From: Candidatus Hadarchaeales archaeon
GTDB lineage: Archaea; Hadarchaeota; Hadarchaeia; Hadarchaeales; Hadarchaeaceae
Direction: 5' to 3'
NCBI GenBank assembly: GCA_038823825.1
Contig: JAWBCC010000002.1
Location: 60,001 to 92,000 of the forward strand
Length of the DNA stretch: 32,000 nt
Shown piece by piece: positions 10,053 to 28,297 of the stretch. The stretch's first letter is position 1, and each line of letters opens with the position of its first letter. The notes beneath the pieces were generated by a model. The model ran no database searches and was not told the DNA's origin. It worked only from the letters and a program-made list of their open reading frames with translations. The translations under genes were made by a program, and so were the position numbers.

Positions 10053-11243
10053 TCAACGTTGTTTGGAAAGAAGTTTCTCTATCTCTTTCTCTAACCAGAT
10101 AACAGAGACATCCGGGATGCTGACTTTCGAGCTTCTCCCTCTATGGCCTGCACCAGAAGGTTTGACATCGATAATCCCTAAAGAAGCAAGCCTTCTCATA
10201 CATTCCCAGACTTTGCTCGGCGCTTTTGGCTTTTCTCCGTATTCCTCGCAGACAACCTTGTAACTTTCTCTCACATCACCGGTCAAAACATAGACGCTGC
10301 CGGAGATCTTCAGTTTTCTGGCAATCGCTAAAAGGAGAAGCTTCTCGTGAACACCCAGCTGCTCAATCGCTTCTCTTCTAACCTCAGGATAGACGTCTGA
10401 CTTTGCCTCCCTGACATGCTCAGGAAGCACAGCTTTGGATCCGCTTGCGTCCGCGATGTGCCCCGCTCTCCAAAGAAGCTCTAGTGCAAATCTCGCGTTT
10501 CCATACCTAGCGGCGATCTCTGCCACCATCTCCACTACTTCCTCGGCAACCGCACCCGGTTTGAACGCAAGCTCTAGTCTCTGGTTTATGATATCTTTTA
10601 ACTCTTCGGCATTGTATCCGCTCAGCCTGAGCATGTTGTGTATAAAGGTGCTCCTAGTCGGCTGATCGAGTTTATCTATAAACCCCGGATCTCTCGCTAT
10701 TCCGATCATGCTTATTCTGCTTTTCTTTCCCCTTTCCTCTGCCGCTCTCGTAAGAGCATATATGAGTTCGGAACCGTTTATCTTGATGAAATAATCCAGC
10801 TCGTCAAGGGCGAGCAGCAAATATCTGTCGTGCGTCTCCAGATACATGAGCACCATGTCAAGCAATTTCTCAGGAGGAAGACCATGATATGGCCACCTTG
10901 GATTGTACTTTTGTACAAGCTTTCCGTAAATCGCATGAATCGTTTTATCGAGCCTACAGTTTATGTGCACAAAATCTACGTTCCTTCCCTTTCCGCGTGC
11001 GATTTCCTCGAAAGCTGTACCGAACTTGATCGCAAGAACAGTCTTTCCGACCCCGATTTCTCCGACTATCAAAGTGTGTTGACAAGTACCGTGGGTCAAA
11101 AGGGGGCGGTAAACTCTTGCCAGCCATCTCTGCTCCTCTTCTCTGTGCACGATTGATGGCGGGATGTAATCTGGCAAAAGAACATTTGGATCTCTGAAGA
11201 CTGTCGGCCTACGTAATTCTTCTTCCAAAATCTTTGATGACAT
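10053..11243 (-). CDS. cdc6: Orc1/Cdc6 replication initiator paralog (divergent)
   Basis: 396 aa. N-terminal VFRDPNVLLPDYIPPSIVHREEE, Walker A GEIGVGKTV, Walker B LLALDELD, and a C-terminal winged-helix-like region. Confidence 0.85.
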   Translation of the reverse strand: MSSKILEEELRRPTVFRDPNVLLPDYIPPSIVHREEEQRWLARVYRPLLTHGTCQHTLIVGEIGVGKTVLAIKFGTAFEEIARGKGRNVDFVHINCRLDKTIHAIYGKLVQKYNPRWPYHGLPPEKLLDMVLMYLETHDRYLLLALDELDYFIKINGSELIYALTRAAEERGKKSRISMIGIARDPGFIDKLDQPTRSTFIHNMLRLSGYNAEELKDIINQRLELAFKPGAVAEEVVEMVAEIAARYGNARFALELLWRAGHIADASGSKAVLPEHVREAKSDVYPEVRREAIEQLGVHEKLLLLAIARKLKISGSVYVLTGDVRESYKVVCEEYGEKPKAPSKVWECMRRLASLGIIDVKPSGAGHRGRSSKVSIPDVSVIWLEKEIEKLLSKQR

Positions 11244-16109: not shown

Positions 16110-17653
16110 ATGAATTTCACCACATCAAGTTGATGTGACATTAGATTAAGAATTGGCACTATACCAGGCGTAGGTGTTACGCCCAGCTTTTTCATGTACT
16201 CTGTTCTCTCTTGGAAGGTTCCGGAATTCACAAGAAAGACTTCTTTGTATTTCTTCTTTCCAAATATATGTAAGTGTCCTGTGTGGAAAACATCGGGGAT
16301 CTCATCTATGACCAACAGATCCTCGCGTTCCGGAGCAAACATAACTTTTCCACCGTAAATCGGTGCCAGATGTCTCTTCTCCAACATCAGTTCCATCAAA
16401 CCTGTCGGCTCTTCCCTTCTTAATCCAGGGACCGAGCAAACTATGTCGTCAAAACTTCGTCCATGATATATCTGAAAATGAACCCCTTCTATGGAAACCA
16501 AGGCCGGATTCCCAACCATGACTGCTTTAAGATCATTATAGAGCTCGGGGCATACATCCTTCTGGATTGCCGGTTGGGGCTCAGCGGATCTAACAGCATC
16601 GTGGTTTCCCGGCGAGATTATGAGCAAGATGTGCTCAGGCAGCTCGGAGAGAATTTTCGCAGCAACCGCATACTGCTTGAATACATCTGGAACCAAAAGT
16701 TCATCATATTGCTCGGGATAAACTCCTATTCCATCCACCAGATCTCCTGCGATTATGATATATTTGACGTTTCCTGCTATTTCTCTCTCTTTCTCCGTCT
16801 CTCCTCCTTCCTTGAGCCACCTGACGAACTTCATGAAGACATTCTCTAGGAACTTGTCGCTTCCTACGTGTAAATCTGAGAGCATGGCTACAGAGACCGG
16901 AATTTCCGCTTTTCTTACTTCTCTTTTAACCGGAACTCCTGGCCACTCGATATCGTCCGCAAAAATTCTAAGCTTATTATAATCGAAATTTACTCTCCCT
17001 TCAACACCAATCACTTCATCGGGAACAACCTTTTCGGCCTTCTCAAGAACCTGCCTATTTCTGGACACAAAAACCATTACGCTGCCCGTTGGATCTTCAA
17101 TCTCTATTGCGATTGTTCCACCCTTTAGAACTTTTTTATCTTTCACCATTCCTATCACGGCAACTTTTTCTCCATTGAAGCTGCGTAAAGATGATATCGA
17201 AAGAGCCCGCTCAAATCTTGGTCTTTCTCTAAGAATCTTCGATAGCTTCTCGAACCTGCTCATGAAAATCCTGTGGAAATCTTCGATTGTGCCCTTTCCT
17301 AGACTCTTCCCCGTAACATCCTTCAGAACCTTCACCTTATGCTCATATTCGGCGGAGATTGGTCTGAATTTCTTATGCGTCAGCTCCCCAACGATCGGTT
17401 CAGGTTCGGGTTTAGCCTCTTCCACTGGTTTTGACGGTTCAAGCAGTGGTTTTACCTCTGGCTGAAGTATTTCCTTAACGATTTCCGCGCCGACCATCAC
17501 GAGAGCCCCATGTTTATCCTTCAAACCCTGAATGACTTTTTCAACAGCCATCTCGACATTCTCAGACGAGAGAATGAGATTTAGCGCTTCTTCAGTCAGC
17601 AGGAGACTCTCTCGAGCAAATTTCCTCGCAATCTCCGCAGTTTCCAAAATCAT
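16106..17653 (-). CDS. dp1: DNA polymerase D small subunit DP1 (3'-5' exonuclease, calcineurin-like phosphoesterase)
   Basis: Phosphoesterase motifs LSDLHVGS, GDLVDG, GNHD and GHLH. The track's start at 17710 would overlap cdc6. The ATG at 17653 (MILETAEIARKF) lies 4 nt after the cdc6 stop and is preferred. Confidence 0.9.
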   Translation of the reverse strand: MILETAEIARKFARESLLLTEEALNLILSSENVEMAVEKVIQGLKDKHGALVMVGAEIVKEILQPEVKPLLEPSKPVEEAKPEPEPIVGELTHKKFRPISAEYEHKVKVLKDVTGKSLGKGTIEDFHRIFMSRFEKLSKILRERPRFERALSISSLRSFNGEKVAVIGMVKDKKVLKGGTIAIEIEDPTGSVMVFVSRNRQVLEKAEKVVPDEVIGVEGRVNFDYNKLRIFADDIEWPGVPVKREVRKAEIPVSVAMLSDLHVGSDKFLENVFMKFVRWLKEGGETEKEREIAGNVKYIIIAGDLVDGIGVYPEQYDELLVPDVFKQYAVAAKILSELPEHILLIISPGNHDAVRSAEPQPAIQKDVCPELYNDLKAVMVGNPALVSIEGVHFQIYHGRSFDDIVCSVPGLRREEPTGLMELMLEKRHLAPIYGGKVMFAPEREDLLVIDEIPDVFHTGHLHIFGKKKYKEVFLVNSGTFQERTEYMKKLGVTPTPGIVPILNLMSHQLDVVKFI

Positions 17654-17657
17654 CACC

Positions 17658-18914
17658 TCAAGGAGAAAGAGAAGCAAAAATTTCCGGACCAACCAGAGAA
17701 AGAATCGCATCTTCTTGAACCAGTGCCTGAACCTGCAGCGGATGAATATTGAGTTTTATTTCCTTTGTTCGTCCGTATCTCCCTCTGTTAACAAGTCTGG
17801 CGCAAATTATTCCTAAAAGGTCTAACTCTGCAATCAAATCTTGTACTCTTCTGCTCGTGAGCACATCCGTTCCGCTCTTGTGGCATATCATCTTGTAGTA
17901 CTCGTAAACTTCACCTGTTGTAACAGGCCTTGGTTTTCTTTGTGCTAGAATGGAAATTGCAAGGAGCACGAGTTTTGATTGCAGCGGAAGAGTTTTTATT
18001 ACCTCGACTATATGATCCTGTTCTATCGTTTCATGAGCTTTCCTGACATGCTCAACCGTAACCGTCTCCGCGCCTTCCTCTTCGGCGATTTCTCCCGCAA
18101 CCCTGAGAAGATCAAGAGCTCTTCTAGCATCTCCGTGTTCCCTTGCCGCGTACGCCGCACAAAGCGGAATAACACCTTCCGCAAGCACACCATCACAGAA
18201 ACTCATCCTCGCTCTCTCTTCCAGAATGTCTCTCAACTGATTGGCATTATATGGTGGAAAAACAACTTCTTCACCGCTAAGACTGCTTCTGACCCTCGCA
18301 TCAAGCATGTTTATAAAACTCAGATTGTTCGATATACCTATGATGCAAGTTCTGGCTTTTTTAAGCTCTAGGTTTACTCTGGTGAGACTGTATAGAACGT
18401 CATCCCCTTCTTTTCTGACCAGCTTGTCTATCTCGTCAAGAACAATGACAACCTGCCTGTTCTCCGCATCCAATGTTTTGACGAAGGCCCGATAGACTTC
18501 ATCCAAGGGCCACCCAGTCCTCGGAATTCTGGGGAGATTTTTTACAACTTCCGATTCCTTCATCTGATCTAGCAGCGTTTCGGCGAGAGATGCGAGAACG
18601 CGATAATGTGTGTTCACGATTTCACAATTGAGATAAAGGACATTCACTTTCATTTGCGAGTTTTTGCTCGCTTCTTCCAATTCTTTTCCCACATATCTGA
18701 CCGTGGCCGTTTTGCCCGTCCCAGGCTTGCCGTAGATCAAAACATTTGAAGGTGTTTCACCTCTTAGAGGAGCCGCAAGTATTCTAGCCAGTTGTTTAAC
18801 CTGCTCATCTCTATGGAGAAGCCTGTCCGGAATGTATGTATGTCGTAAAAATTCTCGGTTTTTGAATATCGGTTTCGTCCTCATGATATCCTCAAACAGG
18901 TTCTTTTGAATCAA
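17658..18914 (-). CDS. cdc6: Orc1/Cdc6 replication initiator (canonical, Pyrococcus-like)
   Basis: 418 aa. LFEDIMRTKPIFKNREFLRHTYIPDRLLHRDEQ, Walker A GKPGTGKT, Walker B VLDEID. The TTG start at 18914 overlaps the upstream gene by 23 nt. The alternative ATG is at 18884. Confidence 0.9.
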   Translation of the reverse strand: MIQKNLFEDIMRTKPIFKNREFLRHTYIPDRLLHRDEQVKQLARILAAPLRGETPSNVLIYGKPGTGKTATVRYVGKELEEASKNSQMKVNVLYLNCEIVNTHYRVLASLAETLLDQMKESEVVKNLPRIPRTGWPLDEVYRAFVKTLDAENRQVVIVLDEIDKLVRKEGDDVLYSLTRVNLELKKARTCIIGISNNLSFINMLDARVRSSLSGEEVVFPPYNANQLRDILEERARMSFCDGVLAEGVIPLCAAYAAREHGDARRALDLLRVAGEIAEEEGAETVTVEHVRKAHETIEQDHIVEVIKTLPLQSKLVLLAISILAQRKPRPVTTGEVYEYYKMICHKSGTDVLTSRRVQDLIAELDLLGIICARLVNRGRYGRTKEIKLNIHPLQVQALVQEDAILSLVGPEIFASLSP

Positions 18915-19395: not shown

Positions 19396-21405
19396 TCATT
19401 TCACCCTGGCGATAAGCCCTTCTTTCGGAGCGTACAATGTCCCCCTCTTTTTTTCTTCCTCTATGACATACTCCACAAAGTCCTCGTCTATTCTTTTTTC
19501 AAGCGCGATACGTTTGACCTGTTCTACTGGTGCCGCGCCACCGTACTCCTTTTCGAGTTCCTCTATTATTTGAAGAACAGTCATCAACTTTTCTCTTTGA
19601 CTCCTTGGCATTCCAGTCATCACCGTGTCGATATCCACGACACCAGCTTCGACATCCAGACCAACCTGTTTCAGACAGTAGTCGACGAGCTGTATCGCCT
19701 TTCTCGCGTCCTCGACTGTCACTTTTTGGCTGAATCTCATTCTGGCATGCGCTTTTGCCAGTCTGATTATCGACTCCAGCTGCCTCGCCGTTATCGGGAG
19801 TGGATGTCCTTTCTGGCTGGCTATTCTTCTCTGTTTAGTGTAGAAGTCTTGGATGAGCTGCTGCGCTTCTTTATCCGTGAACGCCGGATGTACGTTCTTT
19901 TTGGCGTATATCACCATTTTTCTGAGAAGATCAGGCGGAATTGGCGCCTTCAGCGATCTTGGTTTAGAATGAATTGAAATGATGTGCTTGGTAAGTCTGG
20001 CGTCGTCTACCTCTTTTGGGTCATCCCGAAGGATGAATATTAGATCAAACCTTGAGAGAAGAACTGGGTCCAGCGGGATCTGACTTGCAAAGTTCATGTT
20101 CGGATCGAATCTCCCGCCTTTTGGGTTTGTTGCAGCGAGAACGGCGGCTCTTGTGTTCAACCTAGCGACTATGCCTGCCTTAGCTATGCTTATCGTCTGT
20201 TGCTCCATGCTCTCTAGAATCGCCGCGGAATCCTCTTTATCCATCTTTTCGAATTCGTCAATTGCCGCAAGCCCCCCATCGGCAATCACAAGGGCGCCAG
20301 CTTCGAGCGTCCACCCGCTTCCTATTTCATCCCTCACAGCGGTTGCTGTAAGACCCGCTCCAGTCGATTTCATCCCAGATGTATAGACCCCCCGAGGAGC
20401 AACGCTCGCAACCCAATTGAGGAGCTGGCTTTTAGCCGTTCCTGGGTCTCCACTGAGCAATATGTGAATATCTCCACGCACCCTTGACCCATCTGGCAAC
20501 TCTACCGGATCACTTCCGAAGAGCTGAAGAGCAACCGCCTCCTTTATGATCTCGTGACCACTGATCGCCGGAGCTATCGATTTGATGATCTTATCTGTTA
20601 GCTCTGGATCTTTTATCAATTCTTTTATTTTTTCCTCGTCTTCGGGGGTTAACTCAGCTTCCTCTGCGCCCTTCTTTGGAACCTCAATGTGGTTGACTAT
20701 GAAAACCATCTTCAAAATCTTTTCCTTCTTTCCGAATTTTTGAAAAGGCTGAACGTATCCGGTAGCGATCACGTAATCTCCGGGAACGGCACGATCAACA
20801 AAATCATCCCTGACTATTCCATCGAGATGTCTAGGCATCCGCCCGCCTTTCAGCTTTGAGGGAAGATCCTGAAAGCCCAGACTCTGCCAGTCGCAGAACT
20901 CTGTGTTCTCAAGAACCAGTTCAAACGCGTTAGCCCCCCTTGCTTTGCAGTTTGGATTTTCACAAACTAGGGGTTCTATCAGATAATCCCCGATCTGCTC
21001 CCTGCGGTACTCCTCACCACACCTCTTGCATCTGAAGGTGGCAATCTTTATTTCCGGCCTTATCTCGCTTGCCCTGAGAAGAATTCCCTCAATCTGGATG
21101 AACTTCCCCATGTCTTTCGCTCTGATGTCCTTTATGTCCACGGACTTGTCAAGCGACTTTACCCTGAGCTTCATGCCTGGGATTTTCGTGATGCCTTCCA
21201 AGAGAGAGTCCGACAAACGGAAGAATTCTTTCGGATTCTCTAGCAAAAACTTCGCGAGTTTCTCATCGGATTCGACTATCTCATCGTAGGTAACCACTAC
21301 GGATTTCTGACCAGATGCGACGGCTTTTCTTATTTTCTTTTCAAAACTCGAGCTGTACAAGAAATTTTCGAGTATCTCACGTAGATCGCTGTTAGTCAAC
21401 GCCAT
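19396..21405 (-). CDS. mcm: MCM replicative helicase
   Basis: About 669 aa. Zn finger CKRCGEEY...CENPNC, Walker A LLSGDPGTAKSQ, Walker B IDEFEKM, arginine finger SRFDLIF. The ATG at 21405 is directly preceded by GAGAGGTG; the track's start at 21408 is GTG. Confidence 0.92.
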   Translation of the reverse strand: MALTNSDLREILENFLYSSSFEKKIRKAVASGQKSVVVTYDEIVESDEKLAKFLLENPKEFFRLSDSLLEGITKIPGMKLRVKSLDKSVDIKDIRAKDMGKFIQIEGILLRASEIRPEIKIATFRCKRCGEEYRREQIGDYLIEPLVCENPNCKARGANAFELVLENTEFCDWQSLGFQDLPSKLKGGRMPRHLDGIVRDDFVDRAVPGDYVIATGYVQPFQKFGKKEKILKMVFIVNHIEVPKKGAEEAELTPEDEEKIKELIKDPELTDKIIKSIAPAISGHEIIKEAVALQLFGSDPVELPDGSRVRGDIHILLSGDPGTAKSQLLNWVASVAPRGVYTSGMKSTGAGLTATAVRDEIGSGWTLEAGALVIADGGLAAIDEFEKMDKEDSAAILESMEQQTISIAKAGIVARLNTRAAVLAATNPKGGRFDPNMNFASQIPLDPVLLSRFDLIFILRDDPKEVDDARLTKHIISIHSKPRSLKAPIPPDLLRKMVIYAKKNVHPAFTDKEAQQLIQDFYTKQRRIASQKGHPLPITARQLESIIRLAKAHARMRFSQKVTVEDARKAIQLVDYCLKQVGLDVEAGVVDIDTVMTGMPRSQREKLMTVLQIIEELEKEYGGAAPVEQVKRIALEKRIDEDFVEYVIEEEKKRGTLYAPKEGLIARVK

Positions 21406-21459
21406 CACCTCTCGGGTCTGGAAAAATGATTGTGTAAGGGTATTTATTTCTTGTAGTTA

Positions 21460-21530
21460 AAATTTTGTATTCAGCTAAAATATTCTTGTATAAAAACGTT
21501 ATCCTATTTTCAAGTATGAATACAAAATTT
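21460..21530. repeat. 14-bp perfect inverted repeat in an AT-rich tract upstream of mcm
   Basis: AAATTTTGTATTCA at 21460-21473 and its reverse complement TGAATACAAAATTT at 21517-21530, 43 bp apart. Both lie inside the very AT-rich stretch at about 21441-21535. Confidence 0.7.
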
Positions 21531-21724
21531 AAACCAGTTGAATAGCCAAGGTGTTTAGAGAATGATCGCGAGACTCTTACCGCCATACTCTCCCCGATTA
21601 AAACTATTTCAAGAAGAATAGAGGTGTTTTCAGGGAGAGGGGTGCTGGAATGTATTCTTTTATAAGAAACGATTTTTAATTTTCAGAAAAATTTGAAAGA
21701 GTCGAGAACTTTTCTCCTCCTTTC

Positions 21725-21756
21725 TTCCAGTGGAATCAGTGGAAATCAGTGGAAAG
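21725..21756 (+). repeat. Three phased half-ORB (mini-ORB-like) repeats
   Basis: TTCCAGTGGAAT CAGTGGAAAT CAGTGGAAAG. The first unit carries the palindromic ORB core TTCCAGTGGAA. Units are spaced 9-10 bp apart. The array lies 6 bp beyond the glyA stop and about 320-350 bp upstream of the mcm start. Confidence 0.6.
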
Positions 21757-21762
21757 AATGGG

Positions 21763-23061
21763 TTAAGCGAATCTTATGAACTCGTATGCCTCGACAGCAG
21801 ATTCAAATCCATAGTGAACTTTCTGATAGTCTTTTCTGAAATCCGCAACCTCGATGGCGATTTTTTCTTCCGGCTCGCCGTCGATGACAACTCTCCTTAT
21901 AAATCTCGCGATTTCTCTCATCTCCGATTCCTTCATGCCGAGCCTAGTGACTTCTGCGGTACCCATCCGTATACCTCCGGGATTCTTATAATGTCGACCG
22001 TGCCTCGGATCCCAAGGTAAAAGATTCCGGTTGAGGATTATGTTCGCTCTCTCGAGTTTGGCCTCTATCGTTCCCCCGTCTCCGATGTCCGAAACATCCA
22101 CAAGCACTGTATGGGATTTTGTGAAACCCAGTTCTGGGCATAACACCTTAAACCCTTCTCCATAAAGCGCCTTGGCCAAAGTTTGAGCGTTTCGGATTAT
22201 CTGAGTAGCATAATCTTTTCCAAATTCCATCATCTCGGCAAGTGCAACGACGAGCGCCGCTACTGCGTGAAGGTGGTGATTGCTGACCACCCCGGGGAAA
22301 ACCGCCCTGTTTATAGCATTTGCCAGCTCGGCCGTGCAGAGGATCATCCCATGCTGCGGTCCAGGAAGGGTCTTGTGAGTGCTACAGGTCATTACCTCTG
22401 CTCCCTCCCGCAGAGGATCTTGGAACTGGCCGCCTGCGATCAAGCCGGCCACATGCGCGGCGTCATACATCACTCTTGCTCCAACGTCCTTGGCAACCCT
22501 CGACAATCGTCTTACAGGGTGTGGGAAAAGAAACACACTTCCTCCAAAGACGACAAGCTTGGGCTTGGCTTCCTTTATCTTCTCCTCCGCAGCATCCTCA
22601 TCTATGTTCATTCGTTTTTCGTCGAACGGAAGATATTCGATCTCCAAACCGTGAACACTTCCTGCAGTCCCTCCAAACTGTTTTTTCCCCATACTTATGT
22701 GGCCGCCATCCGCTATCGACAAACACATCATCTTGTCTCCGGGCTCCGTTAGCGCGGTGTATGCCGCAAGATTCGCGGTGACTCCAGATATTGGCTGAAC
22801 ATTTGCATGTTCCGCCCTAAAGAGTTCTTTCGCCAGTTCTATCGCAATGAGCTCAACTTTATCTATGAACACACAGCCCGCGTAGACCCTTTCCCCAGGC
22901 CACCCCTCCGCATACCTGTGCTGGAAGTCGCAAATGAGCATCTCTCGAACCGCCGGGCTCGTTATATTTTCGCTCGCAACAAGTGGGATGCTCCTCTTTA
23001 ACCATTCGTGATGCTTTTGCACAAATTCCAATGTTTTCCTGTACGCCTCTCTTCCGTTCAT
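21763..23061 (-). CDS. glyA: Serine hydroxymethyltransferase
   Basis: 432 aa. PLP-lysine motif STHKTLPGPQHG and the VASENITSPAV opening. ATGA overlap with the thrC stop. Confidence 0.9.
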   Translation of the reverse strand: MNGREAYRKTLEFVQKHHEWLKRSIPLVASENITSPAVREMLICDFQHRYAEGWPGERVYAGCVFIDKVELIAIELAKELFRAEHANVQPISGVTANLAAYTALTEPGDKMMCLSIADGGHISMGKKQFGGTAGSVHGLEIEYLPFDEKRMNIDEDAAEEKIKEAKPKLVVFGGSVFLFPHPVRRLSRVAKDVGARVMYDAAHVAGLIAGGQFQDPLREGAEVMTCSTHKTLPGPQHGMILCTAELANAINRAVFPGVVSNHHLHAVAALVVALAEMMEFGKDYATQIIRNAQTLAKALYGEGFKVLCPELGFTKSHTVLVDVSDIGDGGTIEAKLERANIILNRNLLPWDPRHGRHYKNPGGIRMGTAEVTRLGMKESEMREIARFIRRVVIDGEPEEKIAIEVADFRKDYQKVHYGFESAVEAYEFIRFA

Positions 23062-24272
23062 CCGATCAGCTCCTCTATCGCTTTTCTGCTCACCGGCGCC
23101 TCCATGGGTTTTGCGGATATTTCGATCGCCTCCTCAGGATCCTTCAAGACGTGACCTGTCGCAACACACACTATCATCTCATCTTTATTTATTTCCTCCG
23201 CCTCCAAAAGCTTCTTCAGACCAGCAACCGAAGCCGCACTAGCTGGCTCTATCCCTATTCCTTCCAGTCTAGCAACCATCTTCTGCGCCTCAACTATCTC
23301 TACATCCGAAACCGCTTCAGCCGTTCCACCCGATGCCCTTATCGCATGCAATGCCTTGGGACCATTAACTGGATTTCCGATTCTTATCGCCGTCGCTATC
23401 GTTTCTGGATTTTTAACGGGAACAAATTTCTTCAAATTTTTCTTAAAAGCGTCGACGATCGGCTTTGCCCCTTCCGCCTGTATGCCAGTCATCTTTGGGA
23501 TCTTTTTGATAAGTCCAGCCATCTTGAACTCCACGAACCCCTTATAAATCGCCCAAATGTTTGCACAGTTGCCCATCGGGACGATAACGCGATCTGGAAC
23601 CGACATCCTGAGCTGTTCAACTATTTCAAAGCCTATCGTTTTCTGCCCCTGCGGCCTAAACGGATTTATCGAATTGAGTAGGTAGATATCTTTCCTCTCA
23701 GCACATAGCTGTCTGAGAATGTCAAGCGCCTCATCAAAATTTCCTCTTACAGCCACTACTTGCGCTCCATGGACGAGCGTCTGCGTAAGCTTACCAAGTG
23801 CAACTTTTCCCTTTGGTAAGAGAACTAGACATTTGAGGCCTGCTCTAGCGGCATAAGCTGCGAGCGAAGCGGAGGTGTTCCCCGTAGAAGCGCACGCAAC
23901 CGTCTTCACTCCGAACTCAAGAGCCTTCGTGACACCTACAGTCATCCCTCGATCCTTGAAAGACCCGGTCGGATTCGCTCCCTCAAACTTCAAATAAAAT
24001 TCCTCGATGCCGAGCTCTCGGGCGAGCCTCACACATTTTATGAGAGGTGTCCCACCCTCGCCTATTGAAACTATCTTCGAGTCATCGATTATCGGTAGAA
24101 AAGCCCTATATCTCCACACCCTTAGGTCGCCGCTCATTGGATATTTTTTCAGATTTTTCCTCAGCTCTTCTTTTGTGAACTCCACTTCTAAGAGACCGCC
24201 GCATTTCGGGCATTCGTATATCCGCTCGTCTACGTCGAACTTTGCATGACACTCGAAACACTCCAATCTCAT
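23058..24272 (-). CDS. thrC: Threonine synthase with N-terminal zinc ribbon
   Basis: 404 aa. CFECHAKF...CPKCGG ribbon and PLP motif NPTGSFKDRG. Confidence 0.88.
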   Translation of the reverse strand: MRLECFECHAKFDVDERIYECPKCGGLLEVEFTKEELRKNLKKYPMSGDLRVWRYRAFLPIIDDSKIVSIGEGGTPLIKCVRLARELGIEEFYLKFEGANPTGSFKDRGMTVGVTKALEFGVKTVACASTGNTSASLAAYAARAGLKCLVLLPKGKVALGKLTQTLVHGAQVVAVRGNFDEALDILRQLCAERKDIYLLNSINPFRPQGQKTIGFEIVEQLRMSVPDRVIVPMGNCANIWAIYKGFVEFKMAGLIKKIPKMTGIQAEGAKPIVDAFKKNLKKFVPVKNPETIATAIRIGNPVNGPKALHAIRASGGTAEAVSDVEIVEAQKMVARLEGIGIEPASAASVAGLKKLLEAEEINKDEMIVCVATGHVLKDPEEAIEISAKPMEAPVSRKAIEELIG

Positions 24273-26976: not shown

Positions 26977-27877
26977 CGAACAGCTTTTGGAGCACGTAGA
27001 AAGGAGCAGTTGGAATCCTCCATTCTGTCGCTTTTACGAAATCGGTTGTCGCATCGATTGGCAGGAATCTATTAACTTCATCTGGATTTAGGGGTAGGGA
27101 AACCAGCCCGGTGCTGGGGTTCAGGCTCATCGGCGCCAAAAGAAGGCCTCGCCTGATCCTCAGCTCGGAGAGGAGGCTTTCGCCCGATTCTCTGACGATT
27201 TTTACTTTTGATCCCTGCCAAACGATTTCTGCGTCCGGAAGGCGCTCGCGAAGATAGCCCACCACAGCCACCGTAAGCTTCTGGTGAAGCTCGTCGAGAG
27301 CGGACGGATTTCCCATCCAGATTTCCTGCGGAATTCCCTCAAGGGGAAGCACAAGATCAAAGCCGAGATTTCCATCGTATTTCAGCCAGAGGTCTACGCC
27401 AATTTCTTTGAAGCCCTCCAGAACATTTGTGGTTATCTCTTTGGCTTCAGATATACCTCCTTTGACGGCACGAACTGCCCAGACGAGATCTCTCCCGACA
27501 GGTTCCAGTCCGGGCGCGTCGTACCGCCAGTATGTGCCGTAGAAAGCAATCGCTCCCTGTTTTAGAAGAAAGTCCAGAGCTGTGCTGTCTATCTTCATGG
27601 GAATTCTCTGATCTCCCACAGTGATGTATCTCTGGATAGACTTCACTCTTCTGTTGTATACTGCTCCCTCTCGCACCAAGCCATCGGAAGGACTCATGTA
27701 GTTTGCGAGCGCCCTCCGAACGTCCGTCCGCAGGTAGTATCGCATGCGATTCCCGATTTTAAATTGTACGTCAGAAGCCCGGTTCTTTTTGGAGAGAGGG
27801 GTAGAGGAACATATTCCCACCATCCACACGAGTTTGAATCCGAACCGATTTTTATCTTCGGAACCAGACCCCTTCAT
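26945..27877 (-). CDS. PriS-like archaeo-eukaryotic primase homolog with substituted catalytic residues (predicted inactive)
   Basis: Collinear by eye with Pyrococcus PriS (residue numbers follow the 312-aa track ORF that starts at the GTG at 27883). AIAFYGTYWRYDAP matches APYAVYSSVALYEKP. LVWAVRAV (aa 133-140) matches LVFDIDAK. AKEI is shared. YDGNLGFDLVL (aa 169-179) matches YSGRGYHIRVL. ELRIRRGLLLAPMSLNPSTGL matches DLKRILRLPSTLHSKVGL. The ATG at 27877 is used here. The true start is uncertain; internal Mets exist at aa 21 and 47. Confidence 0.55.
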   Translation of the reverse strand: MKGSGSEDKNRFGFKLVWMVGICSSTPLSKKNRASDVQFKIGNRMRYYLRTDVRRALANYMSPSDGLVREGAVYNRRVKSIQRYITVGDQRIPMKIDSTALDFLLKQGAIAFYGTYWRYDAPGLEPVGRDLVWAVRAVKGGISEAKEITTNVLEGFKEIGVDLWLKYDGNLGFDLVLPLEGIPQEIWMGNPSALDELHQKLTVAVVGYLRERLPDAEIVWQGSKVKIVRESGESLLSELRIRRGLLLAPMSLNPSTGLVSLPLNPDEVNRFLPIDATTDFVKATEWRIPTAPFYVLQKLFVSKHAQAASF

Positions 27878-27888
27878 TTCCACTGGAG
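27868..27888 (-). promoter_or_regulatory. ORB-like origin recognition box A (full length)
   Basis: The minus strand reads CTCCAGTGGAAATGAAGGGGT, that is dyad core TCCAGTGGAAA + 4 nt + GGGGT. It overlaps the first codons of the PriS-like ORF. Confidence 0.65.
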
Positions 27889-27943
27889 ATTTATCCTATT
27901 TTTTGGCAAAGTATTTATGATAATAAAATATCATAACATTAGA
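27889..27943. other. AT-rich tract (candidate DNA unwinding element and/or divergent promoter)
   Basis: 55 bp containing 10 G/C (18% GC) against a roughly 50% background. It lies immediately inside ORB-A. Confidence 0.5.
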
Positions 27944-28297
27944 ATGAACGAATTCGATCTGGGCTGGATAATCGGCTTCATAGAGTGTGCGGGAAGCTTT
28001 ACAAAAAACACAATCATCATAGCGAAGAATGGAAAGAAATACATCTACGTGACACCACAATTTTTCCTAACGTTAAGTGACCCTTCCGCAGTGGAAACCG
28101 TTCAGAGACTTTTGAGGATGGGGAAAATAACCCTCGGCGGAAGGAGACTCGAAATAAGAAGGAAAGAAGAGCTTTTGAGGTTCGCGGAGCTCCTTTCTGG
28201 CCGGCTCAAAACAGACAGGCGGCAGAGAGAGTTTGAAAGCTGGGTCAGGCTTCTGCTCCAGTGGAAAGAGAGGGGTAGTAGGCATACATCAGAATAA
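27944..28297 (+). CDS. Small single-domain LAGLIDADG-like protein, catalytic Asp replaced
   Basis: 117 aa from the ATG at 27944: MNEFDLGWIIGFIECAGSF.... The IGFIECAGS motif aligns to LAGFVDGDGS. Downstream, FFLTLSDPSAVETVQRLLRMGKI and LEIRRKEELLRFAELL fit the LAGLIDADG fold pattern. The track's upstream extension to 27764 crosses the AT-rich tract and the PriS-like gene, so it was not used. Confidence 0.55.
   Translation: MNEFDLGWIIGFIECAGSFTKNTIIIAKNGKKYIYVTPQFFLTLSDPSAVETVQRLLRMGKITLGGRRLEIRRKEELLRFAELLSGRLKTDRRQREFESWVRLLLQWKERGSRHTSE
28084..28098 (+). promoter_or_regulatory. Mini-ORB-like half site
   Basis: TTCCGCAGTGGAAAC contains the CAGTGGAAA 9-mer shared with both ORB boxes and with the repeats upstream of mcm. 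It lies inside the LAGLIDADG-like ORF. Confidence 0.35.
28256..28276 (+). promoter_or_regulatory. ORB-like origin recognition box B (full length)
   Basis: The plus strand reads CTCCAGTGGAAAGAGAGGGGT. It is 18/21 identical to box A, in inverted orientation, 367 bp away, and 50 bp upstream of the tyrS GTG. Confidence 0.65.

Follow-up and report, generated by a model that had tools for sequence, protein, structure and literature searches.

The gap between glyA and mcm in this Hadarchaeales genome carries three tandem repeats resembling the ORB core, which raises the question of whether the gap is a second origin of replication, a part of one extended origin region, or an operator through which Orc1/Cdc6 controls the replisome genes. 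These three readings were offered by an original prediction for the window, i.e., the whole stretch of 32,000 nucleotides analysed here (C2:60001-92000), which belongs to a 1.05-Mb assembly of nine contigs. All genes around the gap lie on the minus strand (Table 1), and mcm is followed, in order, by a weak GINS match, orc1/cdc6, and the genes of the PolD small subunit, a HAD hydrolase, and the PolD large subunit. Along the window, the island runs dp2, HAD, dp1, orc1, GINS, mcm, gap, glyA, thrC, hom, and ACT; further on, beyond ACT, lie rSAM, a primase-like gene, ORB A, a small ORF, ORB B, and tyrS. This replication island is syntenic in six genera, and the order thrC-glyA-gap-mcm spans the family and is also present in other families of the order. 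The MCM matches of the relatives L168 (G004), L172 (G019), and L063 are interrupted by inserts of ~1.1-1.4 kb, forming open frames of 1060-1200 aa, which suggests inteins in the MCM of some genera; the MCM of the window has no such insert.

Table 1. Positions of the features discussed, in window coordinates (the third box copy lies on contig C3 of the same assembly)
Feature	Position	Strand	Remarks
orc1/cdc6 paralogue b, divergent	10053-11243	minus	Pfam matches
orc1/cdc6 paralogue a, Orc1-1 type	17658-18914	minus	Pfam matches; inside the mcm operon
mcm	19396-21408	minus	product of 670 aa
Leader ORF, 64 codons	21392-21586	minus	ATG 46 nt after the box; stop overlaps the mcm start
glyA-mcm gap, 354 bp	21409-21762		from glyA stop to mcm start
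AT-rich block, 21% G+C	21434-21534	unstranded	holds the inverted repeat
TATA-like element, mcm-proximal, AAATAAATAC	21449-21440	minus	~45 nt before mcm; putative function
Palindromic element, CAAAATTTT	21469-21456	minus	just upstream of the TATA-like element; putative function
Inverted repeat, perfect 14-bp arm, AAATTTTGTATTCA	21460-21473		within the 18-nt arm 21456-21473
Inverted repeat, perfect 14-bp arm, TGAATACAAAATTT	21517-21530		within the 18-nt arm 21517-21534
Upstream promoter box, 24 nt, DDRE-like, GAATACATTCCAGCACCCCTCTCCC	21633-21657	minus	putative promoter module
Phased array, three ORB-core units	21725-21756	unstranded	period of 9-10 bp
Array piece, TTCCAGTGGAAT	21725-21736		includes the dyad TTCCAGTGGAA, 21725-21735
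Array piece, CAGTGGAAAT	21737-21746
Array piece, CAGTGGAAAG	21747-21756
glyA	21763-23061	minus
thrC	23058-24272	minus
Second box copy, GAATATGTTCCTCTACCCCTCTCTC	27792-27816	minus	between ORB A and the primase-like gene
ORB A, canonical, CTCCAGTGGAAATGAAGGGGT	27868-27890	minus
Small conserved ORF, 117 aa	27944-28297	plus	between ORB A and ORB B; no Pfam match
Third ORB core	28087-28099		between ORB A and ORB B
ORB B, canonical, CTCCAGTGGAAAGAGAGGGGT	28255-28277	plus	inverted relative to ORB A
Third box copy, GAATATGTTCACCCACCCCTCTCTC	C3:109755-109779	plus	44 nt upstream of nurA-herA (Pfam NurA, HerA)

The mcm-proximal unit of the array is a dyad, which is followed by two CAGTGGAAA half units, and the whole array reads TTTCCACTGATTTCCACTGATTCCACTGGAA on the minus strand. 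Three ORB-core half-sites at helical-turn spacing, the first of them palindromic, had been predicted at this place, and both points are borne out to the nucleotide. Copies of CAGTGGAA number 31 in the genome; a 6.6-kb stretch here has six of them, and three are packed into 29 bp, so the triple array is beyond chance.

Related genomes were searched with the pattern TTTCCNCTGNTTTCNNNTGNTTCNNNTNGAA, allowing up to two mismatches, and with the reversed pattern as a control. The 31-nt pattern is found exactly once per genome in 36 of the 61 genomes of the order (31 of the 41 in the family), and every match adjoins mcm on its upstream side; the reversed pattern gave no match in the genomes of the order. 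The original prediction had proposed looking at relatives, and there the array is indeed kept. It stays beside mcm in G038, where the neighbouring gene is one other than glyA, and was not found in families f2 and f5. The array of G012 is identical to that of this genome over the 31 nt. This genus (g1) and g10 carry three CCACTG units, all equal to the ORB core; on the mcm strand, the sequence of most other genera is TTTCCACTG-TTTTCTTGTG-TTTCCACTCGAA. A TTTAAA-type AT palindrome precedes the array by ~37 nt in most genera (L052-type gaps, e.g., L177, L190, and L185) and is followed by a conserved AAGCTTTTAGACCTAYA; this genus and g2 have lost the ~50-nt part with the palindrome, and there the array directly adjoins the glyA stop.

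Between the array and mcm lies a 24-nt box, whose consensus in most relatives is GAATACTTTCGGYGACCYCTCYCC. The 9-mer GAGAGGGGT (plus strand, 21635-21643) is located where it had been predicted, but its proposed kinship to the G-string of ORB box B does not hold, since the 9-mer falls inside this multicopy box on the other strand. The box was found in 36 of the 41 family genomes with up to 16 copies, while the control search of these genomes returned none. Among 76 distinct copies, a gene start lies within 200 nt for 49, in 27 of which the start codon follows 44-54 nt after the end of the box (the modal distance), and the most frequent start of a TATA-like hexamer is 12 nt past the box. The copies precede many unrelated genes; in this genome, they precede the mcm leader, the primase-like gene, and nurA-herA, and in relatives a copy directly abuts ORB A. 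Positioned ahead of genes, the box appears to behave as a promoter module. It matches the 20-bp Sulfolobus DDRE consensus AATAGTTTCRGWDTACTCWS, which was footprinted by Orc1-2 (PMC6061795). The three copies of this genome have ACATTC or ATGTTC (an ANNTTC variant), not ACTTTC, so all of them miss the strict ANTTTC hexamer that is present in the family consensus AATACTTTCGG. In relatives (e.g., L138, L156-L160, and L163 (G023)), the box is also found in IS200/IS605 elements, where it follows directly on the hairpin of the left end and precedes tnpA or tnpB, indicating that mobile elements of the family carry a promoter module of host replication and repair genes. A hairpin between the CT tract of the box and a downstream GGGG or SD was considered and dropped, as it fits some copies only (I10).

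Array and box are 87-92 nt apart (dyad unit end to box start) in the genera g3, g4, g7, g8, g9, g11, and g12 of the family and also in family f3, and family f4 has 95-96 nt. For this genus and G004, the value is 67-71 nt (67 nt in this genome), two helical turns shorter. The distance from box to mcm is constrained as well (217-245 nt), and the spacer sequences between the elements have diverged across genera. The fixed spacing and the constrained box-mcm distance argue that the array is coupled to the promoter module rather than to the 3' end of glyA.

Across 15 diverse array sequences, the invariant columns are TTTC...TG, TTTC...TG, and TTC, which read on the opposite strand as CA-N3-GAAA with a 9-10 bp period and a TTCC-N3-GGAA-like dyad at the end; CA-N3-GAAA is also the frame of ORB and mini-ORB cores. 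The dyad core of ORB and mini-ORB sites, TTCC plus GAA (PMC1904270), is present in the mcm-proximal unit, and the array shows the clustered, repeated copies conserved among relatives that are expected of such sites. No G-string (GGGG at ORB spacing) follows any array unit, so none amounts to a full ORB and the array would be of mini-ORB type at most; the AATGGGT after the third unit is not conserved, even within the genus. Two Orc1/Cdc6 paralogues are encoded in the window, and 30 of 31 genomes from the order have both. Paralogue a matches 2qby_A (E = 6.5e-109) and 2v1u_A (E = 1.1e-100) in the PDB, and the best PDB match of paralogue b is 1fnn_A (E = 8.1e-53); the latter paralogue is a candidate binder of the DDRE-like box. 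The likeness to the ORB core, the Orc1-1 orthologue encoded by the operon, and two precedents, namely the second ORB cluster of Pyrococcus (PMC1904270) and the mORB/C3 site of Sulfolobus oriC2 (PMC3089459), make an Orc1/Cdc6 array the best explanation. On balance, we consider it somewhat probable that the repeats form a putative Orc1/Cdc6 binding array, serving as an operator or accessory site of the mcm-gins-orc1-polD operon. Among the readings originally offered, that of an operator appears to fit best an array that is single-copy and order-wide, travels with mcm, and keeps a fixed phased distance to the promoter module.

A serious rival, although on the whole an unlikely one, is that a DNA-binding protein other than Orc1/Cdc6 controls the mcm operon through the array, its likeness to ORBs being partial and incidental. 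Only TTTC...TG / CA...GAAA and the phasing are invariant, and the fixed array-box spacing would suit any upstream regulator. The GTGGAAA heptamer, invariant in true ORBs, drifts in many array-bearing genera, being missing from the middle unit (TTTTCTTGTG) in most genera and from all units in g12, and no co-variation between the ORB core and the array units of each genome was seen across genera; it is this drift without co-variation that gives a different regulator its weight. However, nearly all genera retain a TTCC-N3-GGAA-like dyad as the mcm-proximal unit, g1 and g10 match the ORB core in all three units, and the locus contains no candidate regulator gene. Orc1 proteins make few base-specific contacts (PMC3089459), so degenerate array units are compatible with Orc1. 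Against an Orc1/Cdc6 array, in turn, count the lack of a G-string, the weak binding of a single mini-ORB by Pyrococcus Cdc6 (PMC1904270), the two families (f2 and f5) in which the array was not found, and the strict ANTTTC hexamer missed by the box of this genome.

It is quite improbable that the array works at the RNA level, be it in the glyA 3' UTR or in a small RNA made from the TTTAAA palindrome. Such a role could account for the conserved stretch of ~85 nt from the AT palindrome to the array and for the oligo-T tracts that follow the array in several genera, but RNAalifold gave no consensus pair over 15 array regions, Rfam scans of the gap and 13 related loci returned nothing above noise, and neither C/D nor H/ACA boxes are present. 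Moreover, g1 and g2 have lost the palindrome and the upstream part and kept the array and its phase to the box. With no pairing and no Rfam match, protein binding at the DNA level is the simplest reading of the array.

The mcm-proximal half of the gap contains the AT-rich block, whose duplex stability is the lowest of any 100-bp stretch in the window (z = 4.2) and comparable to that of the AT tract at the ORB pair; the block overlaps promoter-like motifs and an open frame. The perfect 14-bp inverted repeat that had been predicted in this block exists, its 14-mer arm occurs in the genome at these two sites only, and its arms can be extended to 18 nt, of which 17 match. The idea of a conserved repeat was rejected: the 17/18 repeat is specific to this genome, and relatives keep only copies of a AAAATTTT-type motif. 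The mcm-proximal TATA-like element is conserved in position, with variants TAAATAC, TTTAAG, TATAAG, and TTAAAAA across genera, and it is these motif copies and this element that are conserved inside the leader.

The original prediction took the gap to be non-coding; its 354-bp size is correct, but the mcm-proximal 195 nt hold a 64-codon frame that runs through the AT-rich block. Its start is preceded by GGGGAG, a GGGG-type ribosome site, and an open frame of ~60 codons reaching the mcm start is found in nearly all relatives, an openness that is improbable by shuffling (P = 0.004-0.04 each in 12 of 17 sequences). However, substitutions among four g8 genomes are spread evenly over the codon positions (72/89/80), with 22 synonymous versus 144 non-synonymous codon differences, so that purifying selection on the peptide is not evident. 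No codon periodicity was detected in the leader ORF, the alignments show discrete DNA footprints with some non-triplet gaps, and no homologue of the peptide was found among 5.8 billion proteins. Because of the even substitutions, the few synonymous changes, and the lack of homologues, a small-protein gene was rejected and the leader was not annotated as one. It is probably translated without constraint on the peptide, and the translated leader may couple expression to mcm.

The ORB pair named by the original prediction is real. The full-ORB pattern TCCAGTGGAAANNNNGGGG gave one to two matches per genome in 25 of the 41 family genomes, with almost no control matches, and these share a contig with the gap at a distance of 6-10 kb in relatives and 6.1 kb here. 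The pair, syntenic in six genera, consists of inverted ORBs flanking an AT-rich element and is likely the origin. The GC skew follows gene orientation on the window and contigs C1-C3 and does not locate an origin, and our literature search found no paper on Hadarchaeota origins. In several genera, the third ORB core lies inside the coding sequence of the 117-aa ORF. A single ORB-core-like CCAGTGGAAG (17420-17429, minus strand) was also identified in the dp1 linker region of the PolD small subunit gene; as a counterpart of the Pyrococcus ORB cluster, it was rejected since it is not conserved in the relatives examined.

An independent second origin in the gap, with initiator recruitment to the array and melting in the AT-rich block 190 bp from it, is highly improbable. 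The easily melted block and ORB-core repeats are there, and orc1 lies 2.5 kb downstream; however, the repeats are direct and one-sided, the gap lacks a full ORB, the AT-rich block is not flanked by an inverted partner site, the G-string-like 9-mer is part of the promoter box, and the long inverted repeat is unconserved. In addition, the block falls within a frame kept open into mcm and carries TATA/operator-like motifs, and a canonical, conserved inverted ORB pair is located 6.1 kb away. The second-origin reading is thus not supported; the extended-origin reading may hold and has a published precedent, the Pyrococcus dp1 ORB cluster (PMC1904270). The gap cautions that an ORB-like cluster with AT-rich DNA nearby is not always an origin. 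The notion that the array is a functionless product of neutral slippage deserves hardly any credence, for although the three units look homogenised in this genus, position, phase, and spacing are kept across at least 14 genera with MCM identities of only ~50-60% and with diverged flanking spacers.

Returning to the Orc1/Cdc6 array, we propose that the 354-bp gap would be the control region of the mcm-gins-orc1-polD operon. From glyA to mcm, the elements fit a composite region consisting of the array, the DDRE-like module, and the leader with a second TATA/operator-like element. The array would form a mini-ORB-type site cluster, in which a TTCC-N3-GGAA dyad and two half units face the same side of the helix; the operon-encoded Orc1-1-type initiator would bind it cooperatively, possibly together with the second paralogue. 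With the array in helical register ~90 bp (68 bp in this genus) upstream of the DDRE-like module, initiator occupancy and the resulting DNA bending would tune transcription of the replisome genes, closing an autoregulatory loop. The nearby origin might also use the array as an accessory cluster for initiator binding, in the manner of Pyrococcus. Which protein binds the array, in which direction regulation works, and where transcription starts are inferences. More tentatively still, and rather doubtfully, the replisome operon of Hadarchaeales might be wired to both paralogues, with the mini-ORB array (Orc1-1) phased upstream of the DDRE-like box (second paralogue) as an initiator-sensing transcription switch by which the synthesis of MCM, GINS, Orc1, and PolD responds to origin occupancy and the state of DNA damage, while the translated, sequence-free 64-codon leader passes expression to mcm. 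With 31 bp at a fixed distance from the promoter box, the array is a compact object for testing, and its description sharpens the annotation of the replication island in an uncultured phylum.

The proposed loop resembles that of bacteria, where DnaA boxes in the dnaA promoter mediate autoregulation of the initiator. Common to both are initiator sites upstream of the initiator-encoding operon and separate from the origin; the likeness is a functional analogy only, as the protein family and the domain of life differ and the regulation in the present case is a proposed one. If the initiator binds the array, archaea would have in it a clear counterpart to DnaA autoregulation.

The Sulfolobales DDRE, comprising ANTTTC and AATAGTTTCRGWDTACTCWS, is bound by Orc1-2 (Sun et al. 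2018, PMC6061795). The family consensus of the box, GAATACTTTCGGYGACCYCTC, agrees with it almost exactly over the first 11 positions and matches most of the rest; the position upstream of start codons and the presence of a second Orc1/Cdc6 paralogue are also shared. This likeness concerns the 24-nt box and not the array. Unlike the DDRE, the box also heads IS200/IS605 genes, its copies here lack the ANTTTC hexamer, and it lies farther from the ATG (-47 to -71) than the Sulfolobales DDRE (-23 to -55).

For the array itself, one parallel is the mORB/C3 composite of S. solfataricus oriC2, occupied by Orc1-1 and Orc1-3 (PDB 2QBY; Dueber et al. 2011, PMC3089459), in which the tandem units mORB (CAGATGAAAC) and C3 (GTAGGAAAT) are bound side by side by Orc1 paralogues. 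Both CAGATGAAAC-GTAGGAAAT and the present array consist of C(A/G)-N3-GAAA tandem units with a 9-10 bp period, and the operon-encoded Orc1 is closest to 2qby_A of that complex. The Sulfolobus composite lies inside a mapped origin by the DUE, whereas the array here has three units and lies upstream of a promoter.

In Thermococcales, a second ORB/mini-ORB cluster was reported in dp1, next to oriC and cdc6 and a few kb from oriC, and is bound in vivo by Cdc6/Orc1 (Matsunaga et al. 2007, PMC1904270). Both clusters consist of ORB-core repeats with the same core, TTTCCACTGGA, lie a few kb from an inverted ORB pair in a replication gene island, and are conserved order-wide. Unlike the cluster within dp1, the putative initiator array described here is intergenic and upstream of mcm, and it forms a tight 31-nt tandem with no longer ORB, at a fixed phased distance from the promoter box. 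If the initiator binds this array, the 'second ORB cluster' that was first described for Pyrococcus in 2007 would gain a function.
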